Counted from the first letter of the stretch, positions 43,366-59,562 are shown. The stretch: 64,000 nucleotides of DNA from Dehalococcoidia bacterium (GCA_009619075.1 WJOY01000027.1:662-64661); one strand, 5' to 3'. The notes: generated by a model not told the origin, from the sequence alone. Translations and numbers: made by a program.

Positions 43366-43377
43366 AATTTGGAGATA

Positions 43378-43618
43378 TTGAGTAGGCCAAAAACTTCCTA
43401 GAATATCGTGGAAACAGTGTGAAAAGGCTTTCAAAAGGGCTGGCTGGTATGAAGTTAAGCGGACTGGTGACCACCATCATTACGCCCATCCTACAAAGCT
43501 AGGATTGGTTACCATTCTGGAGCGTTCTACTCTGGCGATGCCTTTACTCAAGAGCATTCTGAGGCAAGCTGACTTGAGTAACGAAGAATTTATCAAGCTA
43601 CTTCACAAGAGGAGGTGA
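43378..43618 (+). pseudogene. hicA: hicA-family toxin gene interrupted by a +1 frameshift in an A5 run
   Basis: From 43382 the frame reads VGQKLPRISWKQCEKAFKRAGWYEVKRTGDHHHYAHPTKLGLVTILERSTLAMPLLKSILRQADLSNEEFIKLLHKRR with no start codon. A TTG at 43378 in the neighbouring frame gives MSRPK and joins it if one A of AAAAA (43389-43393) is removed. Confidence 0.6.
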
Positions 43619-43622
43619 AAAA

Positions 43623-43841
43623 ATGCCGAGAGAATATGAATACACGGTCATTTTAGAGTATGATGAAGAAATTGACGAGTACGCTGCCTTAGTACCTGCC
43701 TTACCCGGATGCACCAGCCAGGGTAAGACCTCGGAGGAGGCCTTAGCCAATGTGCGGGAAGCTATCCGAGGTCATATAGAAGCACTGCGCCAGCTAGGAC
43801 GTGAGGTACCCGTTGAAGACCGTGTAAAAGTGGCCGTATGA
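43623..43841 (+). CDS. hicB: HicB-family antitoxin (UPF0150-like)
   Basis: 72 aa with YAALVPALPGCTSQGKTSEEALANVREAI. Confidence 0.8.
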   Translation: MPREYEYTVILEYDEEIDEYAALVPALPGCTSQGKTSEEALANVREAIRGHIEALRQLGREVPVEDRVKVAV

Positions 43842-43883
43842 AACAAACTTGAAGAAATTCGATGAACTTTAGAACCTGGAACC

Positions 43884-44576
43884 ATGAACCAAACTCAAAA
43901 AACTCAAACAACTCTCATTGTTCCCGCCTATAACGAAGAGGATGGGCTTCCCATTGTGATGGAGAAGATATTCAAAGTCATTAATGGAAGCTATGAGGTG
44001 ATAGTTGTGGATGATGGCTCAACCGACAGAACCTCAGAGGTTGCCTCCCAATTCTCCTGCCGGGCTATAAGACACGAAGTAAATCGAGGCAAAGGTGAAG
44101 CTCTTAAAACTGGCATCAAAAATGCCGTAAGCGACAATATCATCTGGACAGATGCCGACGATACCTATCCCGTGGAACTTATCCCTCAGATGGTAGAAGC
44201 CTTAGATAGCTATGATGTGGTAGTCTGCTCCAGAAAATATGGCCGGGGGAATATCCCCCGCTTTAACCGCCTTGGCAATTGGCTCTTTCGCACCCTAATA
44301 AGGAATATTTATGGCTTCAAGCCTTATGACCCCTGCACCGGGCTCTATGGAGCCAAAAAGTGCCATCTTGAGAGGATGAACCTCTCGTCCAAACGCTTTG
44401 CCATTGAGCCTGAAATCTCCATCAAAGGAAGCCGCATGAAACTTAGAATGCTGGAAATTCCCATAGAATATAAAGCCAGGGTCGGGAGTGCCAAACTCAA
44501 CGCTATAAAAGTAGGCTTTGAAGACCTCTGGACCATTTTAAAATTTATCTTCTGGAGAGAGAATAGATACTCATAG
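43884..44576 (+). CDS. GT2 glycosyltransferase (polyprenol-phosphate sugar synthase-like)
   Basis: 230 aa with LIVPAYNEEDGL, VVDDGSTDRT and DADDTYP. Confidence 0.85.
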   Translation: MNQTQKTQTTLIVPAYNEEDGLPIVMEKIFKVINGSYEVIVVDDGSTDRTSEVASQFSCRAIRHEVNRGKGEALKTGIKNAVSDNIIWTDADDTYPVELIPQMVEALDSYDVVVCSRKYGRGNIPRFNRLGNWLFRTLIRNIYGFKPYDPCTGLYGAKKCHLERMNLSSKRFAIEPEISIKGSRMKLRMLEIPIEYKARVGSAKLNAIKVGFEDLWTILKFIFWRENRYS

Positions 44577-44665
44577 ATACTTGTAGAGATTAAGAGATTG
44601 GAGATTGGGTGATTAAATGGAGATTAACAGAAACTTATAGAGATTAGGAGATTGATAGAAATCGG
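44558..44665. repeat. left arm of four-helix-bundle cassette 3 (GAGATT words)
   Basis: ...TAGAGATTAAGAGATTGGAGATTGGGTGATTAAATGGAGATTAACAGAAACTTATAGAGATTAGGAGATTGATAGAAATC. Confidence 0.75.
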
Positions 44666-44673
44666 GAAATGCC

Positions 44674-45123
44674 ATGACTTACGATAAATCTCAGCCAACT
44701 ACAACAAGTCTCAAGGGGATAAACTCGTTTGAAGACCTTGAAGTCTGGCAAATGGGCAAGGATATTGTTATGAAGATTTACCACTTAACCAAAGACTTTC
44801 CTAAACAAGAATCATTTGGGCTAACTTCACAGATGAGAGAGTCAGCTCTTTCTGTTCCTGCCAACATTGCTGAAGGTTTCGGCCGTTATCATTATATGGA
44901 CAAGGCTAAGTTTTACCTTAATGCCAGAGGCTCGCTCTATGAGCTTAAAAGCCATCTCCTCATTGCCCAGGAGCTTGGATACTTTAATGAATCTCTACCA
45001 GTCTCAACTAATATCAGTAAATCTCAGTCAATTACCAGTCTCTTTAACATGATTGACAACCTAAGCCTAAAGCTTAACAATCTCATCACCGCAACTAGAA
45101 AATTAAGCAAGGGGGCTCAGTGA
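44674..45123 (+). CDS. four-helix-bundle protein (23S rRNA IVS / Avd-like family)
   Basis: 149 aa with LEVWQMGKDIVMKIYHLT, SALSVPANIAEGFGRYHYMDKAKFYLNARGSLYELKSHLLIAQELGY. Confidence 0.8.
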   Translation: MTYDKSQPTTTSLKGINSFEDLEVWQMGKDIVMKIYHLTKDFPKQESFGLTSQMRESALSVPANIAEGFGRYHYMDKAKFYLNARGSLYELKSHLLIAQELGYFNESLPVSTNISKSQSITSLFNMIDNLSLKLNNLITATRKLSKGAQ

Positions 45124-45176
45124 GCCAATGAATCTCAATGAATCTCCACCAATCTCAATTAATCTCGAATCTCTAA
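45124..45176. repeat. right arm of cassette 3 (AATCTC words)
   Basis: GCCAATGAATCTCAATGAATCTCCACCAATCTCAATTAATCTCGAATCTCTAAAGG. It is the reverse complement in words of 44558-44665 and encodes the N-terminus of the next GT2. Confidence 0.75.
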
Positions 45177-46201
45177 AGGTTTCGGTCATCATCTGCTGCT
45201 ACACTATGGAGCGCCTTAACGACATAAAAGAGGCAGTGGAATCAGTCCTTAACCAGACATTAAAGCCACACGAGGTAATATTAGCCATAGACCACAACAA
45301 AGAACTTTTTAGGAAACTTGTAGAGACTTATAGAGATTCAATAGAGATTCGTAGAAAGTTTCCCAATCTCAATGGGTCTCAACCAATTTCAATTAAAATC
45401 GTCCTCAACACTGGCGCTCCCGGTATTTCAGTAACAAGGAATTTAGGAATTCGCACAGCTACCGGACACTTCATTGCCTTTATGGATGATGATGCCATAG
45501 CTGATAAAAACTGGTTGGAGATTCTTATAAGAAACCTTTCGCAAAATCCTTCAGCGGCGGTAATAGGGGGTAAGTGCATCCTTATTTGGCCTAAAGAGAA
45601 GCGCCCTCTCTGGTTTGCTGAGGAGCTTGATTGGATTGTAGGGGGGACTTATAAGGGGATGCCTGTATCTTCAAATGGGCAAATACGAAACGTCTCAGGC
45701 TGTAATATGCTTGCCACAAAGGAGCTTTTTGAAAAAGCAGGCCTTTTCAGCACCAGGATAGGAGCAGTAGCTGGGTTTCTTAGAGGAGCGGAAGAGGCAG
45801 AGATGTGCTTGAGACTCAAAAAGGCTTTTCCTGAGAAGCCCATTTTGTATGAGCCGGAAGCCATCGTACATCACAAAGTTCACCTTCATCGCTTAACTTT
45901 AGGGTATATCATCAGGCGTTCCTTCGATGAAGGTTTCAGCAAAGCCAAAGTCCAAAAACTCCACCGACGAACTCTGTCAACCCAACAAACTCTAGACTCT
46001 CGACTCAGGACTTTCGACTCAGGACTTTCGACTGAACATTCCTACCTCCGCTACCTCTTCTTCACCTCCATCCCCGAAAGGCTGAGGCACTTTTACCAAA
46101 AAAGTAGCTTTCTTCAAGCAGCCACCATTATAATAAGCATAGCTGCCACAGGCGCTGGTTATCTCATAGGAAAGATAAAAACCCAGAACTTAGAACCTTG
46201 A
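45128..46201 (+). CDS. GT2 glycosyltransferase with C-terminal TM helix and internal simple-sequence insertions
   Basis: 357 aa with VSVIICCYT, ISVTRNLGIRTATG and FMDDDA. Insertions are encoded at 45319-45400 and 45988-46037. Confidence 0.8.
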   Translation: MNLNESPPISINLESLKVSVIICCYTMERLNDIKEAVESVLNQTLKPHEVILAIDHNKELFRKLVETYRDSIEIRRKFPNLNGSQPISIKIVLNTGAPGISVTRNLGIRTATGHFIAFMDDDAIADKNWLEILIRNLSQNPSAAVIGGKCILIWPKEKRPLWFAEELDWIVGGTYKGMPVSSNGQIRNVSGCNMLATKELFEKAGLFSTRIGAVAGFLRGAEEAEMCLRLKKAFPEKPILYEPEAIVHHKVHLHRLTLGYIIRRSFDEGFSKAKVQKLHRRTLSTQQTLDSRLRTFDSGLSTEHSYLRYLFFTSIPERLRHFYQKSSFLQAATIIISIAATGAGYLIGKIKTQNLEP

Positions 46202-46220
46202 ACGTAGAACATAGAAAGAG

Positions 46221-46279
46221 GAACAATTATAATAAGCATAATAGGCACCGGGACAGGTTATCTAGTAGGAAAGGCAAAC
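46221..46279. repeat. degenerate duplicate of the GT2 gene 3' tail (copy 2)
   Basis: ACAATTATAATAAGCATAATAGGCACCGGGACAGGTTATCTAGTAGGAAAGGCAAAC aligns with ACCATTATAATAAGCATAGCTGCCACAGGCGCTGGTTATCTCATAGGAAAGATAAAAAC at 46124-46181. Confidence 0.7.
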
Positions 46280-47023
46280 ATGATTGGATTTTTGAAGGCG
46301 GGTAACGCTAGAGAATCAGGCCTGGAAATTGTTTTAAACCAACTGGAAGCATTGTCTATATCAAGTGGGTTGCACACTAAGAAAGAAAAGCGATTACTGT
46401 GGGATTTAGCTAAGTGCAAAGGGGCGGGTGCCATCGTAGAAATAGGAAGCTTTGAAGGTTATTCTACCATTATCTTGGCTAAAAGCTTAAATGGCTTTGG
46501 TTGTGTATATGCCATTGACCCACATACAGGCAAACTATGTGATAGCGATGAAATTAAGTCGTCCCTTAGGTGCGATACCTGGACTCGGTTCAATCAAAAC
46601 ATTCAAGATACTGAGGTTTTTTCGATGGTTCGTCCTATAAAATTAAAAAGTGAAGAGGCTGTAGTAGGTTGGGATAATCCGTTAAAACTCCTTTGGATTG
46701 ATGGCTCTCATAGATATGAGGATGTGAAGAAGGATTTCTTGCTTTGGTATCCTTATCTGTTACTTGGTGGAGTAGTTGTTTTCCACGATTGTTGGATTGC
46801 GGGTGTGCGTAGAGTCATAGTTAATCATCTCCTTCGGAACCGTCTCTTTGGCGAGTTTGAATTTACTCCGTGTTGTATGTTCCGTGCGACTTATCTAGGC
46901 AAGGAGCATGGATTATATCTACAGAGAAGCTTCTGGCGCTTAGTTTTTTGGTTAAGAGGCGCTATTGAGGAGAAGTACGCATTAAGGAAGTGGCTGTTAC
47001 ACTTGCTAAGGTGGTTAAGCTGA
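46280..47023 (+). CDS. class I SAM-dependent methyltransferase (Methyltransf_24-like)
   Basis: 247 aa with IVEIGSFEGYSTIILA, and LLWIDGSHRYEDV. Confidence 0.7.
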   Translation: MIGFLKAGNARESGLEIVLNQLEALSISSGLHTKKEKRLLWDLAKCKGAGAIVEIGSFEGYSTIILAKSLNGFGCVYAIDPHTGKLCDSDEIKSSLRCDTWTRFNQNIQDTEVFSMVRPIKLKSEEAVVGWDNPLKLLWIDGSHRYEDVKKDFLLWYPYLLLGGVVVFHDCWIAGVRRVIVNHLLRNRLFGEFEFTPCCMFRATYLGKEHGLYLQRSFWRLVFWLRGAIEEKYALRKWLLHLLRWLS

Positions 47024-47060
47024 TGTTTAACTAGCTATATCAATGTTTAACCGCCAAACT

Positions 47061-47115
47061 GTTGCTACTGGTGCAGGCTATTTCATGGGAAAGATAAAAA
47101 CCTAGAACTTAGAAC
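47061..47115. repeat. third copy of the GT2 3' tail
   Basis: GTTGCTACTGGTGCAGGCTATTTCATGGGAAAGATAAAAACCTAGAACTTAGAAC versus GCTGCCACAGGCGCTGGTTATCTCATAGGAAAGATAAAAACCCAGAACTTAGAAC at 46142-46196. About 45 of 54 positions match by eye. Confidence 0.75.
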
Positions 47116-47116
47116 A

Positions 47117-48835
47117 TTGGATATGGAATTCAGGCAACTAACATCGCACTGGTCGGCAAAGCAAATTTCAATCTTGTTGACCATAATTGCCTTGATACTC
47201 TGGGCTCATAGCATCACTCAAGCCAAGCTCAACATTGGTTTCTATGGCCTTATCCATAGTTTTCCTCTTACCTTCTTTGTAGCTCTGGGTATTCTTACCA
47301 TCGCCTCAGCTATTCTCTGGGTCTCTAAAGAAAGTCACCAAAAGCTGCTGTTATTGCAACTATTGCTATTAATTACAGCTCTTTGGTTAGTCCCCTTGCT
47401 AATAGGCACGCGCCCTTTCTGCGGCGATGCATATAGAAATTTGTGGCTAATCACTGAGATTACAGAACGAGGAAAACTTTTTGATTACATGTATCTTTTT
47501 TGGCCAGGAGCTTTCCTCCTTTTCCCTACGATGGCCAAGCTGGCCTCTATAAGCTTTGGCTCAATAATGAATATTTCTTCATTTTTTATGCAACTGCTTT
47601 ATCTTTTGCCCCTATATGTCTTCTTGAGGAACATCCTTGGCGAAGCCCGAATTAATTATTGCTGGGCTGGGCTCTGGATTTTCTCTCTTGCTAATTGGAT
47701 TGAAGAAGGATATTTTAGCCCAAGTGGCACCGCTTACTTCTTACTGCTAGTACTACTCGCCTTGGTAACCGCTCCTTCCTTTTGGGAAAGAAGCGCTAAA
47801 TCTGTTGTGCTTCTATCATTGGCGATCGTCACTTTTGCTGCACTAGCAATCACCCATTTGCTTACCTCCCTTGCCGCCTTATGCATTCTTGCTGTCCTAT
47901 GTGCTGTAAAGAGAAATAAAAGAGTAGCACCTGTTGTAGCAGTTTGTTTTCTTCTTGTAATATCCTGGGACATTATTGGCACTGGAGGTTATATGACCAA
48001 GCAAATCACATCTCAGCCTCTTGTCACTACTGTTAGCACAACACCACCGGGCGAGACAACACCACCGGGCGAGACAACACCACCGGGCGAGACAACACCA
48101 CCAAGCGAGGTAACACCTGGGATACTTACCTTCGACCCTAGACCGCTAGTAGAGCAGCAAGTCACCGGACATATAGCAGGTAGTGAGTCCCACATCACCG
48201 TGGTTAGGCTAAGGATATTATTTTCAGCGCTAATTGCTGCATTAGCACTTGGTGGTGCTATCCTTCTTTTAGTTAGAAAAAAATTTCGTGCTGCTATTCC
48301 CATCATAGCTATTGCCTTAGCCCCTATACTGCTTTTTCCTATTAGTGGTTATTGTTATCAGCCCCATTTTACTCTGCGCCTTTATTTCTTCTTGCTACCA
48401 CCTATGGCATATTTTGCCACAAACCTTTTGGATACAAGGAGAAAAGCAGTTGCTGCCATCCTGTGCCTCATATTAATTACCGCTATCCCGCTGCATATTG
48501 TAAGCCACTATGGAAACCAAGCCTTCGACTACTGGTCTCCGAGTTATATAGCTGGCTTCCGCTATGTTGACGGAGTAAAAAAGGATAGCGACTATCCCTT
48601 CGCCAAACTCAGCCAGCTTAGCTGGGAAGATAACCAATTGGTTTTTGATGACAATTTTCCAAATCAAGAGCATTACTTTGCCATCAGCCAGCATGACGAC
48701 GCCTCCTATGATTTTTTATTTAACCAGCCCCAACTTGTCGACGAAGTCTGGAATTGGCTATACAACTCAGGGGATTATGATTGTATCTATGCCAACCCAG
48801 ATTTTGACCTTTATGTGAGAGAAATCGGAAGTTAG
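47117..48835 (+). CDS. large polytopic membrane protein (possible glycan polymerase or GT-C-like) with TTPPGE repeat linker
   Basis: 572 aa with more than 10 hydrophobic segments. A central TTPPGETTPPGETTPPGETTPPSE linker is present. No family motif was recognised. An ATG at 47123 is an alternative start. Confidence 0.6.
   Translation: MDMEFRQLTSHWSAKQISILLTIIALILWAHSITQAKLNIGFYGLIHSFPLTFFVALGILTIASAILWVSKESHQKLLLLQLLLLITALWLVPLLIGTRPFCGDAYRNLWLITEITERGKLFDYMYLFWPGAFLLFPTMAKLASISFGSIMNISSFFMQLLYLLPLYVFLRNILGEARINYCWAGLWIFSLANWIEEGYFSPSGTAYFLLLVLLALVTAPSFWERSAKSVVLLSLAIVTFAALAITHLLTSLAALCILAVLCAVKRNKRVAPVVAVCFLLVISWDIIGTGGYMTKQITSQPLVTTVSTTPPGETTPPGETTPPGETTPPSEVTPGILTFDPRPLVEQQVTGHIAGSESHITVVRLRILFSALIAALALGGAILLLVRKKFRAAIPIIAIALAPILLFPISGYCYQPHFTLRLYFFLLPPMAYFATNLLDTRRKAVAAILCLILITAIPLHIVSHYGNQAFDYWSPSYIAGFRYVDGVKKDSDYPFAKLSQLSWEDNQLVFDDNFPNQEHYFAISQHDDASYDFLFNQPQLVDEVWNWLYNSGDYDCIYANPDFDLYVREIGS
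48038..48109 (+). repeat. 18 bp tandem repeat, 4 copies (ACAACACCACCGGGCGAG)
   Basis: Three perfect copies are followed by one copy with two changes. It is in frame and encodes TTPPGE x3 plus TTPPSE. Confidence 0.95.
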
Positions 48836-48837
48836 AG

Positions 48838-50007
48838 ATGCAAATCTTACAAGTAGGAACCGGTTTTGCGCCGATACCACCCAGGGGGGCCTCTGGAACG
48901 GAGAGAACCATTCATTTCCTCTCCGTTGCTTTAGCTGCCTTGGAGCATGAGGTCACGGTGCTTGATATTGTCACGGAAGACCGTGCCCCAACTCCTTATC
49001 AATTGGCTGAAGTTCCGTTGCGGTGGCAAAAAGACATTAACTTAATGACTCACATTTTGCGAGGGTTTAGTTTTCGATTGGCTTCGGGACGTGGATTAAA
49101 GGATTTGTTAAGCAAGAACAATTTTGACATTATTAACTTCCATAATCAGTTCTCGGCTCATCATATTGATTTAGCTCACCAATATAATATACCGACAGTT
49201 TATTCTTTACACAACGCCCTGTGGTATAACGATTGGGCTTGCCGTTCACAATGGCAAAGGCTTAAATTCTTCCAAGATATAAGAGCAATGCAAAAGGCAG
49301 ATGCCATCATTTGCTTCAATAACGCCACGCGTTCAAACCTGGCACGTTATTTTGGCATTGCTCCAAACAAGATAGCAGTGATATCCAACGGAATCGACGA
49401 AAAGTGGCTGACCAATGGGGAAGTGTCAGAGGAGATAAAAACTCAATATACTCCCAGCAATGAACCTATCGTCCTTAACGTAGGTCGCATTGCTCCTTAT
49501 AAAAATCAGCTCACCTTAGCCCAAGCTATTCCCCTAGTGGTGCAAAAAATACCTGAAGTGCGTTTTCTCTTTATAGGTCCAATAGCCGATAGAAGTTATT
49601 TTCACAAAGTGCAAAGAGCTATTGCTGATGCTGAAGTGGGGAACCATATAAGCTTTCTTGGGGAGATCTCATATGTTGAGCTTCCTGAATTCTACTCTCT
49701 GTGCAAAGTATTTGTTTGTCCATCAGCTTCCGAAGGAATGCCCACAGTGATACTAGAGGCGATGGCAAAAGGTAAGCCAGTAGTGGCGTCAGATATTGAG
49801 CCATTTCGTGAAGCACTGCCTGAAGGGGTTGGTATAACCGTGCCCACTTTTGACCACGAGGCTTTAGCAAAGGTTATCATAAATTTATTGAAAAATGAGC
49901 AACTTCGGAAAGAAATGGGGCAGCGGGCAAAAGAGCATGTTCGGCTTAATTATACCTGGCAGAATGTAGCAAGGATAACAGCACAAGTTTACCAAGGGGT
50001 AATATGA
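48838..50007 (+). CDS. GT4-family glycosyltransferase
   Basis: 389 aa with the C-terminal E-x7-E region PSASEGMPTVILEAMAKGKPVVASD. Confidence 0.85.
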   Translation: MQILQVGTGFAPIPPRGASGTERTIHFLSVALAALEHEVTVLDIVTEDRAPTPYQLAEVPLRWQKDINLMTHILRGFSFRLASGRGLKDLLSKNNFDIINFHNQFSAHHIDLAHQYNIPTVYSLHNALWYNDWACRSQWQRLKFFQDIRAMQKADAIICFNNATRSNLARYFGIAPNKIAVISNGIDEKWLTNGEVSEEIKTQYTPSNEPIVLNVGRIAPYKNQLTLAQAIPLVVQKIPEVRFLFIGPIADRSYFHKVQRAIADAEVGNHISFLGEISYVELPEFYSLCKVFVCPSASEGMPTVILEAMAKGKPVVASDIEPFREALPEGVGITVPTFDHEALAKVIINLLKNEQLRKEMGQRAKEHVRLNYTWQNVARITAQVYQGVI

Positions 50008-50774
50008 AGAATTTTCGTATAAAGACATTGAAAGATGGTAGGACAATGTTAAATTTAGGTTGTGGACCTAAGACAAACTGGGAGTGGAACAACATAGATT
50101 TCTCTCCTTATGCCACTTTAGCACGCCACAGAACGTTCGCAAGAATCCTACTAAAGGTTAGTATTTTAGATAAGGAAAGATACCTTATGTCGGTCAAAAT
50201 CGACCCCGATATAATCCGTTGGGATTTACGCAATGGGATTCCATTTGAAGATGAGACATTTGATGTTGTTTATCATTCCCACTTCTTAGAGCATCTTGAT
50301 AGAGGGTTAGCTCTTCCATTCTTAAGGGAGTGCTATCGGGTTCTGAAGAGAAATAGCATTATCAGGGTAGTTGTACCTAGTCTTGAAGCTATGGTTAATG
50401 ACTATATTGCTTCCATCTCTGCTTTAGAAAGTGGGGATGAAACTAGCTTTACTGCACACGAAGAAGCAGTTCGAGAGCTTATCGAACCAATGGTTTATCG
50501 GGAGCATCCTACCACGAGGCAGCAGTCGGTTTTGCAAAGAATAGTGGAGCGAGTTGTAAGAGGGAATGCAAGAAAGGCTGGTGAATTACATCGGTGGATA
50601 TATGATTCTTATACCCTAGGAGCACTGCTACTGAGTGTCGGTTTCTCCGACGTTGAAGCTGAAGATGCATTTACGAGTAGGATTGAGAACTTCAATTCTT
50701 TTTGCCTTGATTTAAATGAAGACGGTAGTGTATACAAATCGGGTTCACTTTGGATGGAAGCTGTGAAAAAGTGA
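50004..50774 (+). CDS. SAM-dependent methyltransferase
   Basis: 256 aa with MLNLGCGPK and FDVVYHSHFLEHL. Confidence 0.75.
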   Translation: MKNFRIKTLKDGRTMLNLGCGPKTNWEWNNIDFSPYATLARHRTFARILLKVSILDKERYLMSVKIDPDIIRWDLRNGIPFEDETFDVVYHSHFLEHLDRGLALPFLRECYRVLKRNSIIRVVVPSLEAMVNDYIASISALESGDETSFTAHEEAVRELIEPMVYREHPTTRQQSVLQRIVERVVRGNARKAGELHRWIYDSYTLGALLLSVGFSDVEAEDAFTSRIENFNSFCLDLNEDGSVYKSGSLWMEAVKK

Positions 50775-50825
50775 GGAGAACAGCCCAAGTTTATAATACT
50801 CTCAAGAAGAGAATTACTTAGAACA

Positions 50826-52043
50826 ATGAAACATAATCAGCAGAGGAACACAAATATCCTTCTTATCGGGACTGCTTTATCATATAATCAAGGAACAGCA
50901 GCCCAAGCTTTAAGTGCATACAGGTCTCTAAAGGAGTTTAATCCCAGTTCAAGGTTCACATTGATATCTCCTTATCCATCATCTGACTCTAAGCAATGTG
51001 CCAAATATGGCATTAACATGATTAATGGCTCACTGGCAAGATTGCTATTTCATTTTCCTTCCATATTACGAGAATATAAGAGAGCCGATGTTATTATATC
51101 GCTTCATGGCGATTCTTATAGCGACGATTATCATGCTTTTGATATTCCATGGTTGCCTTCATCTTTCCTCCCCTGGGCTCAGATCTTCTGGGGTATTCTA
51201 CTAAGAAAACCAGTAGTAATCTATCCCCAATCTATAGGACCTTTCAAAACTAGGTTGACTAGGTTCTTGGCAAGGGTTGCACTTAATAAAACTAGAGTCA
51301 TAATGGCAAGAGGACAAATAACTTATGAATATCTTAGAGGGATTGGCATTGATGAAGCACGAATGCATTTAGTTGTGGATTCAGCTTTTCTCCTGGAGCC
51401 ATCTCCTCCCGAAAGAGTAGAGGAAATATTATCAACTGAGAATATCAATAAGAACACTGCCCCTCTCATTGGGATGTCAATTAGTCAATCAATTATTCAA
51501 TTTTCTGGGTTTAAGGAAAGGGGGGAAAGAAGGGGTTCGTATATAACATTGATGGCGCAGGTAGTGGATTACTTGGTTAATAAGCTAGACGCTACAATAG
51601 TATTTGTGCCTTCCGTTATAGGTCCGTCAAAGGAGCTGGATGATAGAATCATAGGGCATGAGGTATTTAGCAAAGTGAAACACAAAGACAGAGTTATTAA
51701 AATTACTAATGAATATACACCCGAGGAGTTTAGGGGGGTAGTTGGGCATTGTGATTTATTCATTGGCGCTAGGATGCATGCCAATATTGCTGCTCTTTCA
51801 ATGCATGTTCCCACTATAGCAATTGGGTTTAGTCATAAAACACCTGAAATCATGATGTCTGTGGGCCAGGACAAGTACATTTGTGACATTAAGGGCGTAA
51901 CATTTGAAGAATTGGTGTCAAAAATTGATGATGCTTGGCATAATAGAGAAAAGATAAGAGAAGATTTAGAATCTAGTGTAAAGGTAATGCGTGAAAATTT
52001 GATATCTACCATTGGTCTAATTAAACAGCTCTTGTCTGATTGA
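50826..52043 (+). CDS. polysaccharide pyruvyl transferase family protein
   Basis: 405 aa with HGDSYSDDY and IGARMHANIAALSMHVPTIAIGFSHKT, resembling WcaK/CsaB-type enzymes. Confidence 0.75.
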   Translation: MKHNQQRNTNILLIGTALSYNQGTAAQALSAYRSLKEFNPSSRFTLISPYPSSDSKQCAKYGINMINGSLARLLFHFPSILREYKRADVIISLHGDSYSDDYHAFDIPWLPSSFLPWAQIFWGILLRKPVVIYPQSIGPFKTRLTRFLARVALNKTRVIMARGQITYEYLRGIGIDEARMHLVVDSAFLLEPSPPERVEEILSTENINKNTAPLIGMSISQSIIQFSGFKERGERRGSYITLMAQVVDYLVNKLDATIVFVPSVIGPSKELDDRIIGHEVFSKVKHKDRVIKITNEYTPEEFRGVVGHCDLFIGARMHANIAALSMHVPTIAIGFSHKTPEIMMSVGQDKYICDIKGVTFEELVSKIDDAWHNREKIREDLESSVKVMRENLISTIGLIKQLLSD

Positions 52044-52069: not shown

Positions 52070-52882
52070 TTACTTTTCAGCGAGGATCTCTACTTGAGGG
52101 GCAAGGAGGCTGGCTAAATGGGGAATATGCAACCACTGGAAAACTTTGGCTATGAAACGTCTCTTTTTCGGTAAAATTACATCGGAGTTTTTTATCTTTT
52201 CTGTCGTGAGATTTCTGACGTTTTTGATATTTGCTTCCTTTAGCACCCTTAGGATTGAATATAGTGTTGTATAATTGAGGCTATAAAGGTATGAGCTTTC
52301 TTTCCTTCTAATTCTTAGGATTAGCTTACCAAGTTTCTTAGGGCACAAGGGGATCCACATGATCCGATAATGTCCCTCATAAGGAAAAAGATAATTTGGC
52401 GTGGTTATATACAGCAAGCCTCGTGATTTCAAAACCCTGACCATCTCTTTAATAATAGCAGCAGGGTTTTGTGTATGCTCTAAAACTTGATGACAAGTCA
52501 CAATGTCAAAAACATCATCCCTAAAGGGCAGTTTTTCACCTGTACCTACGCACAACATTTTTCTCATTCCATTCAGTTTGAGATATATTTTGCAAAGCTC
52601 AATCCGTGACTGGTCAGGTTCTATTCCTAATGTCGTTGCTCCTGCCTTATTAGCAAATACGATAAACCCCCCAAAACCACTGCCCACATCCAATATCCTT
52701 TTGTGCCTTAGCTGGGTATACCTCTCTAGTTCTTCTACTCTATCTTTTCCATCTTTCCCCACTATTTTCTCTTTAATCACTTGTTTTTTAATCAAACTTG
52801 ACCACCCCAATTGATCCCCAAGCTCTTCATAGTATCTTTCGATTCTCTCTTTAAATTCCAACTTCAAAGCTTCAATGCTCAC
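52070..52882 (-). CDS. class I SAM-dependent methyltransferase
   Basis: 270 aa with ILDVGSGFGGF and FDIVTCHQVLEH. Confidence 0.8.
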   Translation of the reverse strand: MSIEALKLEFKERIERYYEELGDQLGWSSLIKKQVIKEKIVGKDGKDRVEELERYTQLRHKRILDVGSGFGGFIVFANKAGATTLGIEPDQSRIELCKIYLKLNGMRKMLCVGTGEKLPFRDDVFDIVTCHQVLEHTQNPAAIIKEMVRVLKSRGLLYITTPNYLFPYEGHYRIMWIPLCPKKLGKLILRIRRKESSYLYSLNYTTLYSILRVLKEANIKNVRNLTTEKIKNSDVILPKKRRFIAKVFQWLHIPHLASLLAPQVEILAEK

Positions 52883-52891: not shown

Positions 52892-54226
52892 CTAACCTAA
52901 TATCCTTTCTCGTAGTCTTGGCGGCAGTATGCGATATACCACAAATCTCAGGAGACTCATGAAAAGGGATTTTATTGAGTCTGCAATATGCAACAATCCC
53001 CACAGATGTCGCTTCGAGCTGAAATACGCTCCTATGTAGCACAGCGCGCCTTGTGGGTAAGCCACAGCCCTTGGCTTTGGTACCACTGGATTATAAGCAG
53101 GAGTTTCCTTCCTAAGCAATTCGAACAGAGACATCCGTGCCTTTACGGACTTCTTCCGGTACAAACTTCCTCGTTGAGCTTGTATCACCTGATTTTCAGT
53201 TATTATGGTTATCTCTATCCTCTTCTTTGCTAATGCTTTTTGGAGGAGCTTCTCCCCTACTTTAGTCCTAGACCCAATCAATGATTTGCCTATCTGCTCG
53301 CCTTTCAGTTCCCGCAACCAAGCATCGCCAAACGAAATATCTGCTAATTCACAATTTTGATCATAACACAGCATACAGCGCTTCGGATAAAAAAGAGACC
53401 CAAAGCTACTGCTATTCCAATATTCAGGAATAGAAAGGCAATTACCATCTTTCAGATTGATTCTCATCGTCACCCCGACACCTCCACCTCGGTAATTGAG
53501 TACTTCAATATCTTCCGTTTTAACCTTCATTTTATGGAGGATATACTTAGTGGCTATAAAGGAAGGGGTATGATTACAGAAAAGTCCGAGATGCAAAACT
53601 ACTTTGCTTTCTAACTTTTTATTGACCGCTTCAGCCTTCCTCACTCCATGAATATGACAGGGAAGCCCGACAACGGCAAATTTTTCGCCCTCTTTAGCCT
53701 TAAGGATTTCCTTTAATGCAACGTTAGCTGGCACCGGGCAATACTTGGATTTGGAGGCAGAGACAACCTCCTCTCTGGTTCTAGCAATGAAGGGCTCTGG
53801 TTCTAAAGGTTTATCTTTCTTCATTCTGGTAACCAAAGCACCATCAATTATCCCTTCCTCTAGGGCAAAAATCAGTAGCGCAGTTACCAAGCCACCAGAG
53901 GCAGAGTTGTACCTAATATCATAGTCAGTGGCGTGCCCAATATAGCAATTAAGGTAGGTTCCCAGAAGGATATCCTCGGGCTCCTTGCCAAAGATATTCA
54001 GGTTTAACTGTTTAAAATCAACGCTATGTCCCGGGCAGACGTCAAAGCAGAGTCCGCATTCAGTGCACCTTTCTTTATCTAGTTTAGGAACATAAATCCC
54101 CTTACGATGGTCTATGGCCAATTCAATAGCATCTTGCGGGCAAATACCGACACAGGTGCCGCAACCTGTACAGAGGCTAGCTTTAACTACCGATTCAATG
54201 GTCTTTTCGGTTTCAGTTTCTGACAT
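52892..54226 (-). CDS. FrhB/FdhB-like (coenzyme F420 hydrogenase beta-type) protein with 2x[4Fe-4S] ferredoxin domain
   Basis: 444 aa with CTGCGTCVGICP and CTECGLCFDVCP, followed by an FrhB-like body (VVGLPCHIHG). Confidence 0.75.
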   Translation of the reverse strand: MSETETEKTIESVVKASLCTGCGTCVGICPQDAIELAIDHRKGIYVPKLDKERCTECGLCFDVCPGHSVDFKQLNLNIFGKEPEDILLGTYLNCYIGHATDYDIRYNSASGGLVTALLIFALEEGIIDGALVTRMKKDKPLEPEPFIARTREEVVSASKSKYCPVPANVALKEILKAKEGEKFAVVGLPCHIHGVRKAEAVNKKLESKVVLHLGLFCNHTPSFIATKYILHKMKVKTEDIEVLNYRGGGVGVTMRINLKDGNCLSIPEYWNSSSFGSLFYPKRCMLCYDQNCELADISFGDAWLRELKGEQIGKSLIGSRTKVGEKLLQKALAKKRIEITIITENQVIQAQRGSLYRKKSVKARMSLFELLRKETPAYNPVVPKPRAVAYPQGALCYIGAYFSSKRHLWGLLHIADSIKSLFMSLLRFVVYRILPPRLRERILG

Positions 54227-54247: not shown

Positions 54248-55570
54248 TCAGTGAGTTTCAATTTGTCGTCTCCAAAGCTTGCAACCCGTTACGACTGCCA
54301 CCACTGCCTGACTCACAAGCCAGGCAATGCCCGCCCCTATAATTCCCATTCGGGGTAGCAAAACATGACTTAATGCCAAAGTAGCGACTGCTATAAAGGC
54401 GCTTAAACCTATGACGCCTTTCATCTTCATCTCTACCCTTTTTATGCTGAAGTAAATATAATTTAAACTTACCGGAAGGGCAGAGATGGCTAAAATCCTG
54501 AGAAGCCTGGTGGCATTCTCAGAGTAGACGGCGCCAAAGAAAAGAAGAATCTTGTCTCCTAAAAAGAAGATTATAATTATCGCCGGGATGAGGAGAAAAA
54601 GGATAAGCCTTAAACTTCTTTTGATATCACTAGCTAACCTTTCCTCATTATGTGAACCCTCGGCAAGTAGTGAAAATGATGCAGCCAGGGGAATCATAAA
54701 CAATACACTTGCAATGGCCCGAGCGATGTAAAAGTAGGCATTTTGCTCAGCTCCAAGTAGGTTTACCACCATGAGAGGAAGAACATAAGTGGGAATTGCC
54801 CAAAGTATATTGGCGGCATAGTTGACAAAGGAAAAGTGCATCATATCGTTTATTGCCTGTCTCCTTATAGTAGGCACAGGGCGATAGCCAGCCTGAACTT
54901 TAGGGAGGAAAAGAAAAATGCCAATTGCTACCGCTACTGATGCAGCAATTCCCCAGGAGGCAAAGATGCCGAAGGTATGGAAGAGCGCTGCTAGAGCTAC
55001 AAGCGGGATAAATCTCAAAAGACCAAAGGTTAAGCCCTGTGCCAGGGCAAAGCCTGCTTTGCGTTTAGCGACAAACGTTTGCTGCGTAAAGCTCTGAAAA
55101 GTAATGGCACCAGCAAAGATTATAAAGGCAGCAAAAAATACCGGGTGCTCTCGAATCGGAAGCAGCGCTGGCGACCAGAAAGGAAGTCCAGCGAGGAAGA
55201 TGAGGGATAGGGCTATCGAGGTAAGCCCGCCTATGGTAAAGCAGGAATTTATCATGTCTCTGCTCTTCTCGCCGGCTTTAGGCAAAAAGCGAATAAGCCC
55301 ATAGGTAAGCCCCAAGGTAGAGAGCACAGCCAGCAAACTCATTGCTGAGATAGCTGCCGAGGCGAGCCCAACACCTTCCACGGGATAAAGCCTGGCGGCT
55401 ACTGCCCAGAAGAAGAAGCCGGTGAGGGCGAGGATGGCGGAGTTGAGCATAAGGTAGACCGCATTGCGGTAAAGGGAAATGCCATAAAGCGACTTAAGCC
55501 CTTCCCTGGGGGAGCGGACAATTCCTAAGGCATCAAGGAAGGTTGCCCTGATGAACGAAAGCGGTTTCAT
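54248..55570 (-). CDS. wzx: Wzx-like oligosaccharide flippase (MOP superfamily)
   Basis: 440 aa with about 12-14 TM segments, in a polysaccharide-biosynthesis context. Confidence 0.75.
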   Translation of the reverse strand: MKPLSFIRATFLDALGIVRSPREGLKSLYGISLYRNAVYLMLNSAILALTGFFFWAVAARLYPVEGVGLASAAISAMSLLAVLSTLGLTYGLIRFLPKAGEKSRDMINSCFTIGGLTSIALSLIFLAGLPFWSPALLPIREHPVFFAAFIIFAGAITFQSFTQQTFVAKRKAGFALAQGLTFGLLRFIPLVALAALFHTFGIFASWGIAASVAVAIGIFLFLPKVQAGYRPVPTIRRQAINDMMHFSFVNYAANILWAIPTYVLPLMVVNLLGAEQNAYFYIARAIASVLFMIPLAASFSLLAEGSHNEERLASDIKRSLRLILFLLIPAIIIIFFLGDKILLFFGAVYSENATRLLRILAISALPVSLNYIYFSIKRVEMKMKGVIGLSAFIAVATLALSHVLLPRMGIIGAGIAWLVSQAVVAVVTGCKLWRRQIETH

Positions 55571-55630: not shown

Positions 55631-56317
55631 CTATGCTAGGTCTTCCACACTGCCTATGTCAATCCAGGATTCAGTGAAGGGGTAGGCGTGGACTTCATCC
55701 TTATCTATCAGGTAAGCAATAAAACTGCCCAGGTTATCTCTTTTGCCCCGCTGGCAATATTGGTGGAGGAGGGGAAATATCCGCTGAGGGAAGATGTAGC
55801 AGGCGGTAGCAACAAGGCTTGACTTGGGCTTGGCTGGCTTTTCCTGGAATTCAGCTATCCTGTGCCCATCTAGTTGCACCACGCCAAACTGGCTGGCCTT
55901 ACCTTTGTTGCCTATATCGTAAACAGCTACCAGAGTATGTTTGCCATCATATCTGGCTATGAATTGAGCCAAAGCGAACTCAAAATAGTTATCCCCGGCG
56001 ATAACCAAGAGGTCTTCGACTATTGGCTTATTTTCAATCCAGAAGTTAAGCGAGCCAACAGCGCCTAGCTTCTGGTCCTCGCTTAAAACTTCCTCTACCA
56101 AGATTTCCACCTTTCTGTTTATTGTTCGTTGCCATTGATGAAAATCAGCCTCAAACTTCTTGTTGGTGTTAACCATGATGTCTATATTTTTGGGAATCTT
56201 ATCCACGATATGGCTTATTATCAGTTTGCCTTTATATCCCAGTAAGGCTTTTGCCCGGTTGATGGTCAAGGGATATAACCTGGTGCCAAAGCCGCCGGCA
56301 AGGATTAAACACTTCAT
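55631..56317 (-). CDS. sugar-phosphate nucleotidyltransferase
   Basis: 228 aa with MKCLILAGGFGTRLYPLT. It overlaps the aglB-like gene end by 4 nt. Confidence 0.8.
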   Translation of the reverse strand: MKCLILAGGFGTRLYPLTINRAKALLGYKGKLIISHIVDKIPKNIDIMVNTNKKFEADFHQWQRTINRKVEILVEEVLSEDQKLGAVGSLNFWIENKPIVEDLLVIAGDNYFEFALAQFIARYDGKHTLVAVYDIGNKGKASQFGVVQLDGHRIAEFQEKPAKPKSSLVATACYIFPQRIFPLLHQYCQRGKRDNLGSFIAYLIDKDEVHAYPFTESWIDIGSVEDLA

Positions 56318-58659
56318 TGGACATACTCAAATATTTTTACCGCTGGCTTGCCTTGCCATTTCTGTGCTGAGGTATAAACCAGCTGGTAATGCGTCATTTC
56401 TTCCAGGGGCACAGGGCTGGTAAAGGGGTCTGTGCCTACTATTTTATAATTTCCCAATTCCTGGCTTGAGATGTAAGCTTCGGCCTCTTCATAGGTAGAA
56501 AAGGATTCTGAGCCGGTGATTTCTTTATACCACACTCCCTCCCGGCTCAGCTTTTCCTCATAGGAAATTACTAATGTTTCTTCGGGAACCACAGCTTTGC
56601 CATCGAAGTTATAAAGCCTGACAACCATAGAACGATAGTAAGCGGGATAAAAGAGGTTTAGTGGCTTTAACTCGCCGCCTTGAACTGGCTGGTAGTAAGT
56701 TTCGTAGAACTCATCCTGGCTGCTGCCAGCCCATGTTGGCATGGCATAGAATTTCGTGGTGGGCATGGCATCATCGATTATGACATATTTTGAGTCTAGC
56801 TGGTCTATTATCTGGCTGGACGCATCCTCATCCTGAGAGAGGAAGTAGTAACTAGTTTGCTCGGCACGCCAGCCCCCGCCTGGGTTTTGATTGGCTGGGC
56901 GGTAGGCAACACGGGCTATCCAGTGACCATAATCCCACCAGGATAGGACACCATAGGCAGTTTCAGGATATTTAAAGCTATGTCTTGGCGGATATAGCTC
57001 ATAATAGAAATCAGGGTCACCGAAGGGCTCGGGGCTGTTATCCTTGAGCCACTCAAGCGAGCTATACCAGGCACGGTCGATGAGAGATGGCTCCTGGGCA
57101 AGGGCCTTAGCTTTTCCAATATTCGGAAAAAAGACCAAGAAGAAGACAACCACTCCGGCCACAATCACCCTTATCCAGGTGGCTCTGCGCTGCCGCAGTG
57201 TCTTTTCTCTTGCCCTCGCTTCAGTTTTTCTTTTTTTCTTGACTTTCTTGACCACTTCGACTACCGCTGCAGGCGGGGCAAGCAATTCTTTTAAGCCAGC
57301 AAAGTCCAGGATTCTCCAAGAGAAATATCCGGTGAGCAAGGCAGCATTTATGGCGAAATAGTAACTGAAGCGGCGCTGACTCAAAACTGCTGCCAGCATG
57401 ATGATGCTCCACACCAGGAATAGCGTTTTATCAGTGCTTTCTTCTTTGATATTGCGGTAAATGAGCCAGCCGAGTGAAATGAAGGAGATGAAGAAGGCGG
57501 TGGTAAAGTTGAACCAGGCTATCTGAAAAGAGAAACTGCCATAGGGAAAGAGAAGAGGATGCACCTCCAGAACAGTCAGCATGGCTCCGCCCGGGATGAA
57601 GACGCCAAAAAATATGCTGAACATGGAATGAAACAAAGAGGGATTGATGGCATAGAAAACAGCAAAGCCAATTCCAGCAAGTCCAAATAGTACTAAGGGG
57701 TAGTAGGCAGGCTTTATGGCTTTATATGTCAGAAGATAGGAAATACCTCTCAAGGCTATGGGTGACAGTATGGCAACCAGGAACGAGGCATGATAGATAG
57801 AAGTTAGTCCGCCTCTAGATAGAAAGGGGAGAACCATTATGAAAGAGATAAGGAAAGTCAGGAAGCCGATGATACAGAGGTAATCAGTTGATTTATGCCT
57901 CAGATGGTCTATGATGAATTGAATTACCAGCCAGGTGAAGATAATAAAGACAACCAATAGACCACCTACCCAGGTGAGAAGATAGATGCCGAGGAAGATG
58001 CCAGCTAATAAAGTGTAAATGAGGGGCTTGGTAATGACTGACCAGTTTCTGTTTACCAGATGACCAAATGATATATTCCTTTCCCTGGCTTGTTTAAGGG
58101 CTAGAATCAAAAACAATATGGTCACAGTGGTAAACAAACTCTCGGCTACGTGGTGGTCGGTGAAGCCAAGGAGGGAGCGATTCAAAAACTCGCCGGGCAA
58201 GAGGGCAAGCAAGGCAGCCGATAGCAAGCCCACCCAGCGGTTAAACAGTTCCTTGCCAATGAAATACACCGGAATGAGTGTCAGGGTGCCCAGGACAGGC
58301 GGGATATAGGCGCCAACGACATCTATAGTATGCTGGGTTGGCGAACCCAGGCCAACCAGCCAGGCACTGCCAGCAACAAGCCAGTCAAAAAATGGCATGG
58401 ATGCCCAGGCACCACCGTCAGGATAATAGATATATGGGTCGTAATGTATCAAGTGAGGGAAATGGTGGACTAGATTATCCACCAATCTCATGTGATACCA
58501 GGGGTCAACACCTTTGAACCAGACTGAGCCATTGACGAAAACCTGGTCGTAGGGCAGAGCTATGCGTATGTATAATGAGATGCCACAGAGAATGAGCAGG
58601 ACTATGCCAGCTATGGCTGCAGGAGGGAGTTTGCCTTTCTGACTTAGTTGCGCACTCAC
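56314..58659 (-). CDS. aglB: STT3/AglB-type oligosaccharyltransferase
   Basis: 781 aa with about 13 TM segments and a C-terminal soluble domain. Motifs are WWDYG (codons at 56926-56940), N-terminal GVDPWYHMRLVDN (compare the eukaryotic DPYFNYR loop), GFTDHHVAES and TVLE (TIXE-like). Confidence 0.85.
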   Translation of the reverse strand: MSAQLSQKGKLPPAAIAGIVLLILCGISLYIRIALPYDQVFVNGSVWFKGVDPWYHMRLVDNLVHHFPHLIHYDPYIYYPDGGAWASMPFFDWLVAGSAWLVGLGSPTQHTIDVVGAYIPPVLGTLTLIPVYFIGKELFNRWVGLLSAALLALLPGEFLNRSLLGFTDHHVAESLFTTVTILFLILALKQARERNISFGHLVNRNWSVITKPLIYTLLAGIFLGIYLLTWVGGLLVVFIIFTWLVIQFIIDHLRHKSTDYLCIIGFLTFLISFIMVLPFLSRGGLTSIYHASFLVAILSPIALRGISYLLTYKAIKPAYYPLVLFGLAGIGFAVFYAINPSLFHSMFSIFFGVFIPGGAMLTVLEVHPLLFPYGSFSFQIAWFNFTTAFFISFISLGWLIYRNIKEESTDKTLFLVWSIIMLAAVLSQRRFSYYFAINAALLTGYFSWRILDFAGLKELLAPPAAVVEVVKKVKKKRKTEARAREKTLRQRRATWIRVIVAGVVVFFLVFFPNIGKAKALAQEPSLIDRAWYSSLEWLKDNSPEPFGDPDFYYELYPPRHSFKYPETAYGVLSWWDYGHWIARVAYRPANQNPGGGWRAEQTSYYFLSQDEDASSQIIDQLDSKYVIIDDAMPTTKFYAMPTWAGSSQDEFYETYYQPVQGGELKPLNLFYPAYYRSMVVRLYNFDGKAVVPEETLVISYEEKLSREGVWYKEITGSESFSTYEEAEAYISSQELGNYKIVGTDPFTSPVPLEEMTHYQLVYTSAQKWQGKPAVKIFEYVQ

Positions 58660-59274: not shown

Positions 59275-59472
59275 TAAAGCAATCTTTGGTAGAGGCGGGG
59301 ATGAACCCCGCCACTACGAAGGGAGATTGCCACGCGGAGCCTGTCCTGAGCTAGATTCTTCGATCGCTCCGCTCCCTCAGAATGACACAAAGTGGAGGGC
59401 TCAGAATGACAGGAAGCGAAGGGCTCGCAATGACAAGAAGCCATCTGGCGGGGATGAACCCCACCACTACTA
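59275..59472. repeat. composite repeat cluster abutting tRNA-Gly
   Basis: GGCGGGGATGAACCCCGCCACTAC (59294-59317), GAGCCTGTCCTGAG, CTCAGAATGACA twice, AGCGAAGGGCTCGCAATGACA and GGCGGGGATGAACCCCACCACTAC (59447-59470). These are reverse-orientation copies of the words at 33120-35166. Confidence 0.8.
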
Positions 59473-59490: not shown

Positions 59491-59562
59491 AGCGGGTGAT
59501 GGGATTCGAACCCACGACGTCTTGCTTGGGAAGCAAGCACTCTACCGCTGAGTTACACCCGC
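59491..59562 (-). tRNA. tRNA-Gly (anticodon CCC)
   Basis: The minus strand reads GCGGGTGTAACTCAGCGGTAGAGTGCTTGCTTCCCAAGCAAGACGTCGTGGGTTCGAATCCCATCACCCGCT. The anticodon stem is CTTGC/GCAAG and the loop is TTCCCAA. Confidence 0.9.

Follow-up and report, generated by a model that had tools for sequence, protein, structure and literature searches.

N-linked glycosylation of bacterial proteins is classically attributed to the PglB system, which is found in Campylobacterota and some Desulfobacterota. A locus of a member of Dehalococcoidia, an abundant lineage of the subsurface and of marine sediments, raises the question whether a bacterium could perform this reaction with an enzyme of archaeal type. 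The locus is encoded in a stretch of 64,000 nucleotides (GCA_009619075.1 WJOY01000027.1:662-64661), which is referred to as the window, and a preliminary description of its sequence had proposed that it holds a gene for an oligosaccharyltransferase (OST) of the STT3/AglB type, called aglB below. The current analysis points, with good confidence, to a catalytically competent single-subunit AglB-type OST of the euryarchaeal 'Methanotecta' subfamily (TIGR04154) in a Dehalococcoidia (Chloroflexota) host; the confidence is lower for the details of the lipid and the glycan. The features of the protein are best explained if the enzyme acts as a sequon-reading N-OST on envelope proteins.

Assignment of the protein to the AglB family

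The open reading frame (ORF) listing contains aglB as a minus-strand ORF of 781 residues with a GTG start, in exact agreement with the position and length given earlier. The GTG start is supported by the N-terminal sequence, which agrees with the consensus of 41 homologues. Two Pfam families have been assigned to the protein, STT3 (PF02516; 98.1 bits against a gathering threshold of 24.5) and AglB_core-like (PF22627; 82.6 bits against 27). The NCBIfam family TIGR04154, 'oligosaccharyl transferase, archaeosortase A system-associated', matches residues 19-781 with 666.7 bits (cut-off 450, E-value 5.8e-200). Among the proteins of known structure in PDB, the top match of the single sequence is the Archaeoglobus fulgidus AglB-L, or AfAglB-L (AF_0380; 3WAJ, 5GMY and 7E9S), with an E-value of 1e-76 over residues 20-655. 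A profile made of 42 homologues matches AfAglB-L at 5e-102, human STT3A/B at about 1e-11 and Pyrococcus AglB at 0.007.

The PglB of Campylobacter belongs to the same superfamily, catalyses the same type of reaction and also has a bacterial host, but no PglB chain in PDB was matched at an E-value of 1 or less by the single sequence or by the profile. Based on these Pfam, TIGR04154 and PDB matches, the protein is classified by its sequence as an AglB of the Archaeoglobi/Methanomicrobia type, and neither as a PglB nor as a GT-C enzyme outside the OSTs. The earlier proposal of an STT3/AglB-type rather than a PglB-type enzyme is borne out, and no grouping with GT-C enzymes other than OSTs was seen.

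Residues 20 to about 520 align to the region of 13 transmembrane (TM) helices of AfAglB-L in a near-continuous manner, with gaps in the TM12-TM13 loop, and about 13 TM helices are accordingly predicted for the aglB product. The helix count in an AlphaFold2 (AF2) model is compatible with 13 TM helices, the model being of low confidence (mean pLDDT 52.6, pTM 0.34). In the genome scan the query is about 30% identical to Archaeoglobus sequences. The native AfAglB-L has 868 residues (the crystallised chains have 875, with extra residues), and the query with its 781 residues is about 90 residues shorter. It also differs from AfAglB-L in a strongly basic cytoplasmic loop (KKVKKKRK) ahead of the last TM helix and in its bacterial host.

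Conservation of catalytic and sequon-reading residues

Equivalences of residues were obtained from a HMMER alignment to AfAglB-L, for which the roles of D47, D161, H163, E360, R426, WWDYG and K618 have been described (PMC8342417, PMC3703281). Conservation was assessed in an alignment of 42 homologues that are 60-78% identical. The motif set proposed earlier is complete: DPWYHMR of the first loop (from residue 52), GFTDHH (from residue 165), TVLE and WWDYG are all present and align to functional positions of AfAglB-L (Table 1), and WWDYG falls exactly where it had been placed. The query and AfAglB-L have in common the GxD of the first motif, the D-H-H of the second, TIXE, the equivalent of R426, WWDYG and a variant DK motif with an insertion and the same K...M spacing, which lies in the query within IIDDAMPTTKFYAM (from residue 627).

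Residues D52, D168, H169, H170, E365, R429, R430, W574, W575, D576, Y577, D629 and K636 are invariant in 42 of the 42 homologues, and G578 and M640, which are not invariant, are at least 90% conserved. This pattern clearly indicates that, among the aligned relatives, purifying selection acts on the residues for catalysis and sequon binding. By sequence, the enzyme keeps a metal triad (D52, D168 and H170), E365, R430, WWDYG and a Lys-type DK pocket that would read Ser/Thr at the +2 position of N-X-S/T.

The pocket is of the Lys type and not of the Ile type, since the counterparts of K636 and M640 in AfAglB-L are K618 and M622, whereas PglB has the MI motif with an Ile-type pocket (PMC3703281). 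The variant DK motif with an insertion has been reported for Archaeoglobi, Halobacteria and Methanomicrobia (PMC3703281), and the presence of this variant in the query appears to fit the phylogeny described below. The DK-type region that had been noted after WWDYG is confirmed and can be refined to this variant, which the Lys and the Met match.

Several observations count against a competent N-OST. The first acidic DK signature of AfAglB-L, E613, aligns to A631 of the query, with D629 and D630 situated two and one residues upstream, so that which residue may serve as this signature is uncertain. His81 of AfAglB-L, which is proximal to the phosphate, aligns to Ala86. The catalytic loops of the AF2 model have a pLDDT below 50 and a geometry too poor to be checked, because the alignment of 42 sequences is too shallow, all of its rows being at least 60% identical. 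An acceptor protein, be it an S-layer protein, an archaellin or a PGF-CTERM protein, is not visible within the window.

The change at His81 and the lack of an acceptor in the window would also suit an AglB that has been repurposed, either to transfer its glycan to a non-protein acceptor such as a lipid or a wall polymer, or mainly to hydrolyse the lipid-linked oligosaccharide (LLO) and free the glycan. The OSTs are known to possess LLO-hydrolysing activity (PMC8342417), and in the sole bacterial archaellum structure solved the densities were read as likely O-glycans rather than N-glycans (PMC12488501). We consider such repurposing improbable in view of the Ser/Thr pocket and TIXE, which do not vary: the WWD of WWDYG, the Lys of the DK motif and the TIXE clamp are retained in all 42 homologues, which is hard to explain for an enzyme without an N-X-S/T peptide substrate. 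A sequon-reading N-OST hence remains the favoured function.

The Chloroflexota archaellum itself (Nat Microbiol 2025, PMC12488501) is a different machine, and the paper that describes it makes no mention of AglB and considers O-glycosylation of the filament likely. Archaellum genes are not present in the window. No archaeosortase family was matched by those window ORFs that were scanned against Pfam.

Bacterial host and integrity of the contig

A gene of archaeal type in a bacterial genome could be the product of a contig that is archaeal, chimeric or binned with the wrong organism, the bacterial context then being an artefact of assembly. Some short contigs binned to other phyla that carry AglB homologues (L034, L047 and L064) do look unreliable. 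On the contig analysed here, features specific to bacteria flank aglB on both sides. To the left of the glycan cluster the window encodes the T-box leader and PlsX, and it further encodes SSB, RnpA, YidC, Jag/KhpB, IleRS and an HtrA-type protease and includes glycine-cleavage and lipoate genes. On the other side of aglB there are a HicA/HicB-like pair (HicA is weak, E-value 0.0034), tRNA-Gly, ArgC, tRNA-Glu, PCMT and a recombinase of the XerC/D type. The T-box, RnpA, YidC and tRNAs that had been named as bacterial flanking genes are all among them. The GC content is even, at 0.39-0.48 over the window, and the glycan cluster shows no sharp break.

The order xerC, an 81-residue ORF, pcm, (nitroreductase), argC, aglB, the gene of a 228-residue nucleotidyltransferase and a flippase gene is shared with L086 from ENA and L087 from NCBI (GCA_000753555.1), whose AglB proteins share 72-73% identity with the query, and uvrC is also part of the order matched in these independent assemblies. 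Homologues that are 61-67% identical adjoin leuB/leuA, glnA and purL, or genes of the ribosomal proteins L1, L10 and L12, in contigs of up to 561 kb; those beside the leu and ribosomal protein genes are in Dehalococcoidia contigs of 100-560 kb. Since the same gene order recurs in two independent assemblies and more distant homologues have housekeeping neighbours, an archaeal or chimeric contig is excluded, and the whole explanation by mis-assembly or mis-binning can be considered effectively refuted.

The window IleRS is 99% identical to an NCBI protein named 'Dehalococcoidia bacterium' on a contig of 134 kb. This counterpart belongs to a public Dehalococcoidia metagenome-assembled genome (MAG), but the nearest AglB of that database shares only 77% identity with the query. 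Either the near-identical strain is without this aglB allele, or divergence at the locus is much faster than in housekeeping genes, as it is at O-antigen-like loci. An exact-sequence search with the window ArgC retrieved only a contig of 1.2 kb, and the aglB locus of the near-identical strain was not reached.

Distribution, phylogeny and origin of the Dehalococcoidia AglB

A large protein database contains 1817 homologues of the query at an E-value of 1e-10 or less, of which the best 120 are 56-78% identical. Named members include 'oligosaccharyl transferase, archaeosortase A system-associated [Dehalococcoidia bacterium]', such as MCK4403255.1 and MGB6874122.1. In a collection with one genome per species, every full-length match of 43-70% identity comes from a Dehalococcoidia, Dehalococcoidales or Chloroflexota MAG. 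Methanocellales, Methanosarcinales and ANME-1 follow at 39-44%, Methanosarcinaceae at 32-37%, and Archaeoglobi, Methanomicrobiales and haloarchaea at 28-32%.

A neighbour-joining (NJ) tree was built from 57 sequences and 682 columns, with a haloarchaeal root, 100 bootstraps and no PglB or STT3 outgroup. The sequences from Dehalococcoidia and Chloroflexota all form a single clade, which also takes in L034, a contig of 3.6 kb assigned to Verrucomicrobiota. This clade, including the query, adjoins the ANME-1/Syntrophoarchaeum clade and then Methanocellales. The AglB proteins of Methanocellales, ANME-1 (Methanophagales), Syntrophoarchaeum and Methanosarcinales belong to the same TIGR04154 subfamily, are 39-44% identical to the query and form the adjacent clades, but with most of them the query aligns no further than about its residue 690, and the C-terminal units differ.

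AglB is widespread in Archaea and has been inferred in the archaeal last common ancestor, and bacterial homologues have earlier been placed 'within the euryarchaeal clade' (PMC4973528). From the distribution of identities, the placement in the NJ tree and the breadth of AglB in Archaea, the parsimonious reading is an ancient transfer of aglB from archaea to Dehalococcoidia followed by vertical descent. The donor would be among archaea related to Methanocellales, ANME-1 or Syntrophoarchaeum, and the recipient would be the ancestor of a large Dehalococcoidia clade. For the archaellum of Chloroflexota, Methanotecta have been inferred as the donor group in a parallel transfer to Dehalococcoidia and Anaerolineae (PMC12488501), and the donor group of aglB agrees with this.

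The tree itself also speaks in part against so simple a history. The branching order around the Dehalococcoidia clade is provisional, and the tree includes the long-branch members L026, L034, L066 and L078, because of which a single transfer from archaea to bacteria is uncertain. Monophyly of all bacterial sequences is found in 0 of 100 bootstraps since L047 falls inside Methanosarcina.

The homologues L034, L047 and L064 lie on contigs of only 3.4-4.7 kb that have been assigned to MAGs of Verrucomicrobiota, Thermodesulfobacteriota and Desulfurellaceae respectively. The first, of 3.6 kb, lies inside the Dehalococcoidia clade and the second, of 3.4 kb and labelled 'Thermodesulfobacteriota', inside Methanosarcina. 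Rather than pointing to further transfers, these assignments probably reflect errors of binning.

Nothing found here indicates that other genes moved along with aglB. In archaeal loci GT4 and GT2 glycosyltransferase genes of the agl type, or genes of the pilus/archaellum type, adjoin aglB, and DUF1616 is absent. Co-transfer of a cassette was not detectable in the two archaeal loci compared, L022 and L036, which have only GT4, GT2, epimerase or pilus/archaellum-type genes. Beside aglB in these two loci we found neither DUF1616, nor a geranylgeranyl reductase (GGR) gene, nor the core of aglB, nucleotidyltransferase and flippase. The window GT2 at 43884-44576 is only 27% identical to the GT2 adjoining the Methanocellales aglB.

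Genes of the glycan island

The features of the window are listed in Table 1. A plus-strand operon (34088-52043) converges on the minus-strand operon headed by aglB. The DUF1616 protein, the GGR-family reductase, the DPM1/AglJ-like GT2s and the Wzx-type flippase, which had been named as neighbours of aglB, are all encoded here.

Table 1. Coordinates of aglB, of its predicted functional residues and of other features of the window (aa, amino acids; nt, nucleotides; PLP, pyridoxal phosphate; SAM, S-adenosylmethionine; HMM, hidden Markov model)
Feature	Coordinates	Strand	Remarks
aglB, euryarchaeal-type oligosaccharyltransferase (STT3/AglB family, GT-C), 781 aa	56314-58659	-	Heads minus-strand operon; HMM and PDB matches
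D52 codon	58504-58506	-	Aligned to AfAglB-L D47 (G-V-D52 with G-N-D47); first DXD motif, predicted metal ligand; invariant in 42
D168-H169-H170 codons	58150-58158	-	Aligned to AfAglB-L D161-H162-H163; second DXD motif, predicted metal ligands; invariant in 42
TVLE, aa 362-365	57565-57576	-	Aligned to AfAglB-L T357-I-A-E360 (TIXE, external loop 5); predicted sequon backbone clamp and catalytic Glu; E365 invariant
R430 codon	57370-57372	-	Aligned to AfAglB-L R426, beside lipid phosphate; invariant
WWDYG, aa 574-578	56926-56940	-	Aligned to AfAglB-L W550-G554; predicted Ser/Thr(+2) pocket
Variant DK motif, kinked helix	56740-56781	-	D629-D630-A-M632-P-T-T-K636-F-Y-A-M640 aligned to AfAglB-L D611-I-E613-M-E-T-G-K618-Y-Y-A-M622
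Sugar-1-phosphate nucleotidyltransferase, 228 aa	55631-56317	-	4-nt overlap with aglB stop; pair with aglB kept in L086, L087 and L088
Wzx/AglR-like polysaccharide flippase (Polysacc_synt)	54248-55570	-	Also after the aglB pair in L086 and L087
FrhB/FdhB-like Fe-S flavoprotein	52892-54226	-	
SAM-dependent methyltransferase	52070-52882	-	
Polysaccharide pyruvyl transferase (PS_pyruv_trans)	50826-52043	+	Matches CsaB, WcaK
Methyltransferase	50004-50774	+	
GT4 glycosyltransferase	48838-50007	+	
Polytopic membrane protein, 572 aa	47117-48835	+	TPPGET repeat; no family match
Methyltransf_24 methyltransferase	46280-47023	+	
GT2	45128-46201	+	Top NCBIfam match haloarchaeal AglG, 203 bits, below cut-off 440
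GT2, DPM1 type	43884-44576	+	Top matches Dol-P hexose transferase and AglJ, 111 bits each, below cut-offs
Second DPM1/AglJ-like GT2	42673-43365	+	
GmhB heptose-1,7-bisphosphate phosphatase	42084-42650	+	190 bits, above cut-off 178
Sugar-1-phosphate nucleotidyltransferase (ManC/HddC-like)	40748-41662	+	
GalE UDP-glucose 4-epimerase	39344-40477	+	393 bits, above cut-off 262
GmhA-like sedoheptulose-7-phosphate isomerase	38743-39318	+	127 bits, below cut-off
NAD-dependent sugar epimerase/dehydratase	37524-38639	+	
GHMP kinase	36547-37527	+	Top match HddA heptose-7-phosphate kinase, 155 bits, below cut-off
Geranylgeranyl-reductase-family flavoprotein	35205-36377	+	TIGR02032, 196.8 bits, above cut-off 158.8
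DUF1616 membrane protein	34088-34933	+	
T-box leader	27329-27587	-	Full-length, 101.5 bits; upstream of PALP enzyme
PLP-dependent (PALP) enzyme, 454 aa	25833-27197	-	Downstream of T-box
IleRS	19049-22162		
tRNA-Gly	59491-59562		

The genes past the conserved aglB core are wholly different among the relatives and include, in place of those of the window, Rml genes, NeuB with a polysialyltransferase, PEP mutase with LicD, or aminosugar genes. Such turnover is expected from the hypervariability of a surface-glycan island. The aglB site, with xerC-pcm-argC on one side and aglB, nucleotidyltransferase and flippase genes on the other, appears to be a stable chromosomal site that heads this hypervariable island.

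For the ManC/HddC-like gene a true start near 40928 is likely, as the Pfam domain covers the listed ORF only from residue 62 onwards. The FrhB/FdhB-like flavoprotein may, as a guess from its position, be a partner of the pyruvyl transferase.

The DUF1616 protein is highly conserved in Dehalococcoidia and has thousands of homologues, its nearest relatives being 94% identical against 77% for AglB. A strict functional link between DUF1616 and aglB is not supported, as in L085 DUF1616 adjoins genes of the glmM/glmU/glmS type without aglB.

The 572-residue membrane protein gave no Pfam, NCBIfam or PDB match, even at E-values up to 1-10. Its gene, situated between those of a methyltransferase and the GT4, contains an exact 18-nt repeat of 4.4 copies (48038-48117) that encodes the TPPGET units. 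A 570-residue unannotated protein encoded beside aglB in L090 was compared with it and is not homologous. The protein could be a candidate for a GT-C glycosyltransferase or a polymerase acting on the outside.

Repeats and small modules of the island

Tandem heptamer and 14-mer repeats have been identified within 38637-46033, mostly in intergenic regions. They comprise CTAGGGATTAGGAG (4.9 copies), GGACATA (6.6), TCTAGGG (4.9), CCCCAAT (8) and GACATAG (3.4), with examples at 38657-38725, 40155-40200, 40466-40498, 40874-40929, 42059-42082 and 45995-46033. The GGACATA array is part of the GalE-like ORF (39344-40477), whose frame stays open and in which GalE is matched over two separate stretches. 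CCCCAAT is presumably also the unit of a cyanobacterial short tandemly repeated repetitive (STRR) sequence.

Three genes of the '23S rRNA-intervening-sequence protein' family (PF05635), a four-helix bundle, are spread across the sugar cluster (40504-40872, 41687-42079 and 44674-45123). PF05635 is also encoded in the glycan islands of relatives (L086 12510-12875, L087 18884-19306), alongside toxin-antitoxin-like pairs of the HEPN/MNT, PIN and HicAB kinds. The glycan islands of Dehalococcoidia seem to collect small modules of a selfish or defence type.

The region 59290-59470, between tRNA-Gly and the HicA-like gene, has a 24-nt repeat of 2.5 copies (59376-59435) flanked by two copies, differing by one mismatch, of a GC-rich hairpin, GGYGGGGTTCATCCCCGCC, and its translation gives pseudo-ORFs of the 'ARNDK' type. 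Pseudo-ORFs of this type are common in some bacterial genomes. The region looks like a small repetitive intergenic element.

Proposed pathway of glycan assembly and transfer

The gene content suggests a pathway in which the glycan would be assembled in the cytoplasm on polyprenyl phosphate, an AglJ/DPM1-like GT2 initiating and the AglG-like GT2 and the GT4 extending it. D-glycero-D-manno-heptose could be supplied by a GmhA/HddA/GmhB/HddC-like route, and the methyltransferases and the pyruvyl transferase would decorate the glycan. The Wzx-like protein would then flip the lipid-linked glycan, and AglB would transfer it en bloc to Asn of secreted envelope proteins, of the S-layer or other. A heptose-containing, methylated and pyruvylated glycan on envelope proteins is plausible from the genes present.

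The carrier is the more speculative part of the pathway. Donors of the monophosphate type are used by Euryarchaeota (PMC8342417). The DPM1-type initiator and the fact that no phosphoglycosyltransferase of the WecA/PglC type was seen in the glycan cluster, taken with these euryarchaeal donors, suggest a monophosphate-linked carrier for this cluster also. The carrier may perhaps be partly saturated by the GGR-family reductase encoded nearby, which we consider as a candidate polyprenol saturase.

This arrangement can be compared with both known types of systems. The pgl locus encodes the phosphoglycosyltransferase PglC and the ABC flippase PglK, whereas the window cluster has DPM1/AglJ-like GT2s and a Wzx-like flippase. 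The Agl pathway of Haloferax volcanii (AglJ, AglG, AglR and AglB) is similar in that the best NCBIfam matches of the window GT2s are AglJ or Dol-P-hexose transferase and AglG, and in the window a Wzx-like flippase and the 228-residue nucleotidyltransferase, which has an AglF match in NCBIfam, adjoin aglB. However, the scores are 108-203 bits against cut-offs of 325-440, and the sugars differ, with heptose and pyruvate in the window.

These scores tell against the proposed pathway in its details. The DPM1/AglJ-like GT2s reach 108-111 bits against NCBIfam cut-offs of 325-375, and as the scores are below the equivalog cut-offs the Agl-like GT2s should be taken as resemblances and not as assignments. 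Furthermore, the DUF1616 and GGR genes are not consistently beside aglB in other Dehalococcoidia contigs, nor in L022 and L036.

The convergence of the two operons allows a different use of the sugar genes. As the plus-strand operon is not co-transcribed with that of aglB, most of the genes at 34-52 kb might make a separate polysaccharide of the Wzx/Wzy type or a secondary cell-wall polymer, AglB then using a simpler lipid-linked glycan. The matches of the pyruvyl transferase, CsaB and WcaK, are enzymes of polysaccharides, the 572-residue protein could be a polymerase of the Wzy type, and the genes downstream of aglB vary completely among relatives. The last point has less force in that archaeal agl clusters are equally hypervariable beside aglB. 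The GT2s match AglJ and AglG best rather than polysaccharide synthases, and a single flippase is present for both operons. We regard a separate polysaccharide as a real possibility, though not a likely one; it would alter only the predicted glycan, and AglB would still be an N-OST. The assembly of the glycan by the genes of both operons is preferred here.

In its widest form, the proposal would be that a large Dehalococcoidia clade runs a complete N-glycosylation of the euryarchaeal style, with an initiator of the DPM1/AglJ type, a dolichol-like carrier that is monophosphate-linked and partly saturated, Wzx and AglB, that this was gained from Methanotecta in the same wave of envelope-gene transfer as the archaellum, and that N-glycosylated S-layer or other surface proteins are core to the envelope. 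Peptidoglycan is weak or absent in some Dehalococcoidia. The proposal in this form is doubtful and is put forward tentatively.

Significance

The enzyme family and its mechanism are well known, and the automatic annotation at NCBI already names such proteins. A literature search turned up no publication in which AglB or an OST is connected with Dehalococcoidia or Chloroflexota, and the Dehalococcoidia clade of AglB is not recognised in the literature found. The interest of the finding is moderate and comes from the host, its abundance and the connection with further archaeal envelope genes that these bacteria carry.

An active enzyme would extend N-glycosylation of the archaeal type to a major bacterial class, and would support the view that archaeal envelope machinery has passed into Chloroflexota on a broader scale, beside the archaellum. 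Active enzymes would also provide a set of AglB proteins from bacterial hosts for glyco-engineering, associated with islands for heptose and pyruvate, rhamnose, sialic-acid-like sugars and phosphonates. The finding raises the question whether these bacteria make dolichol-like, monophosphate-linked carriers. Should the complete pathway prove true, it would represent a second, independent and ecologically widespread bacterial N-glycosylation besides that of PglB, and archaeal lipid chemistry would be at work in a bacterial membrane.

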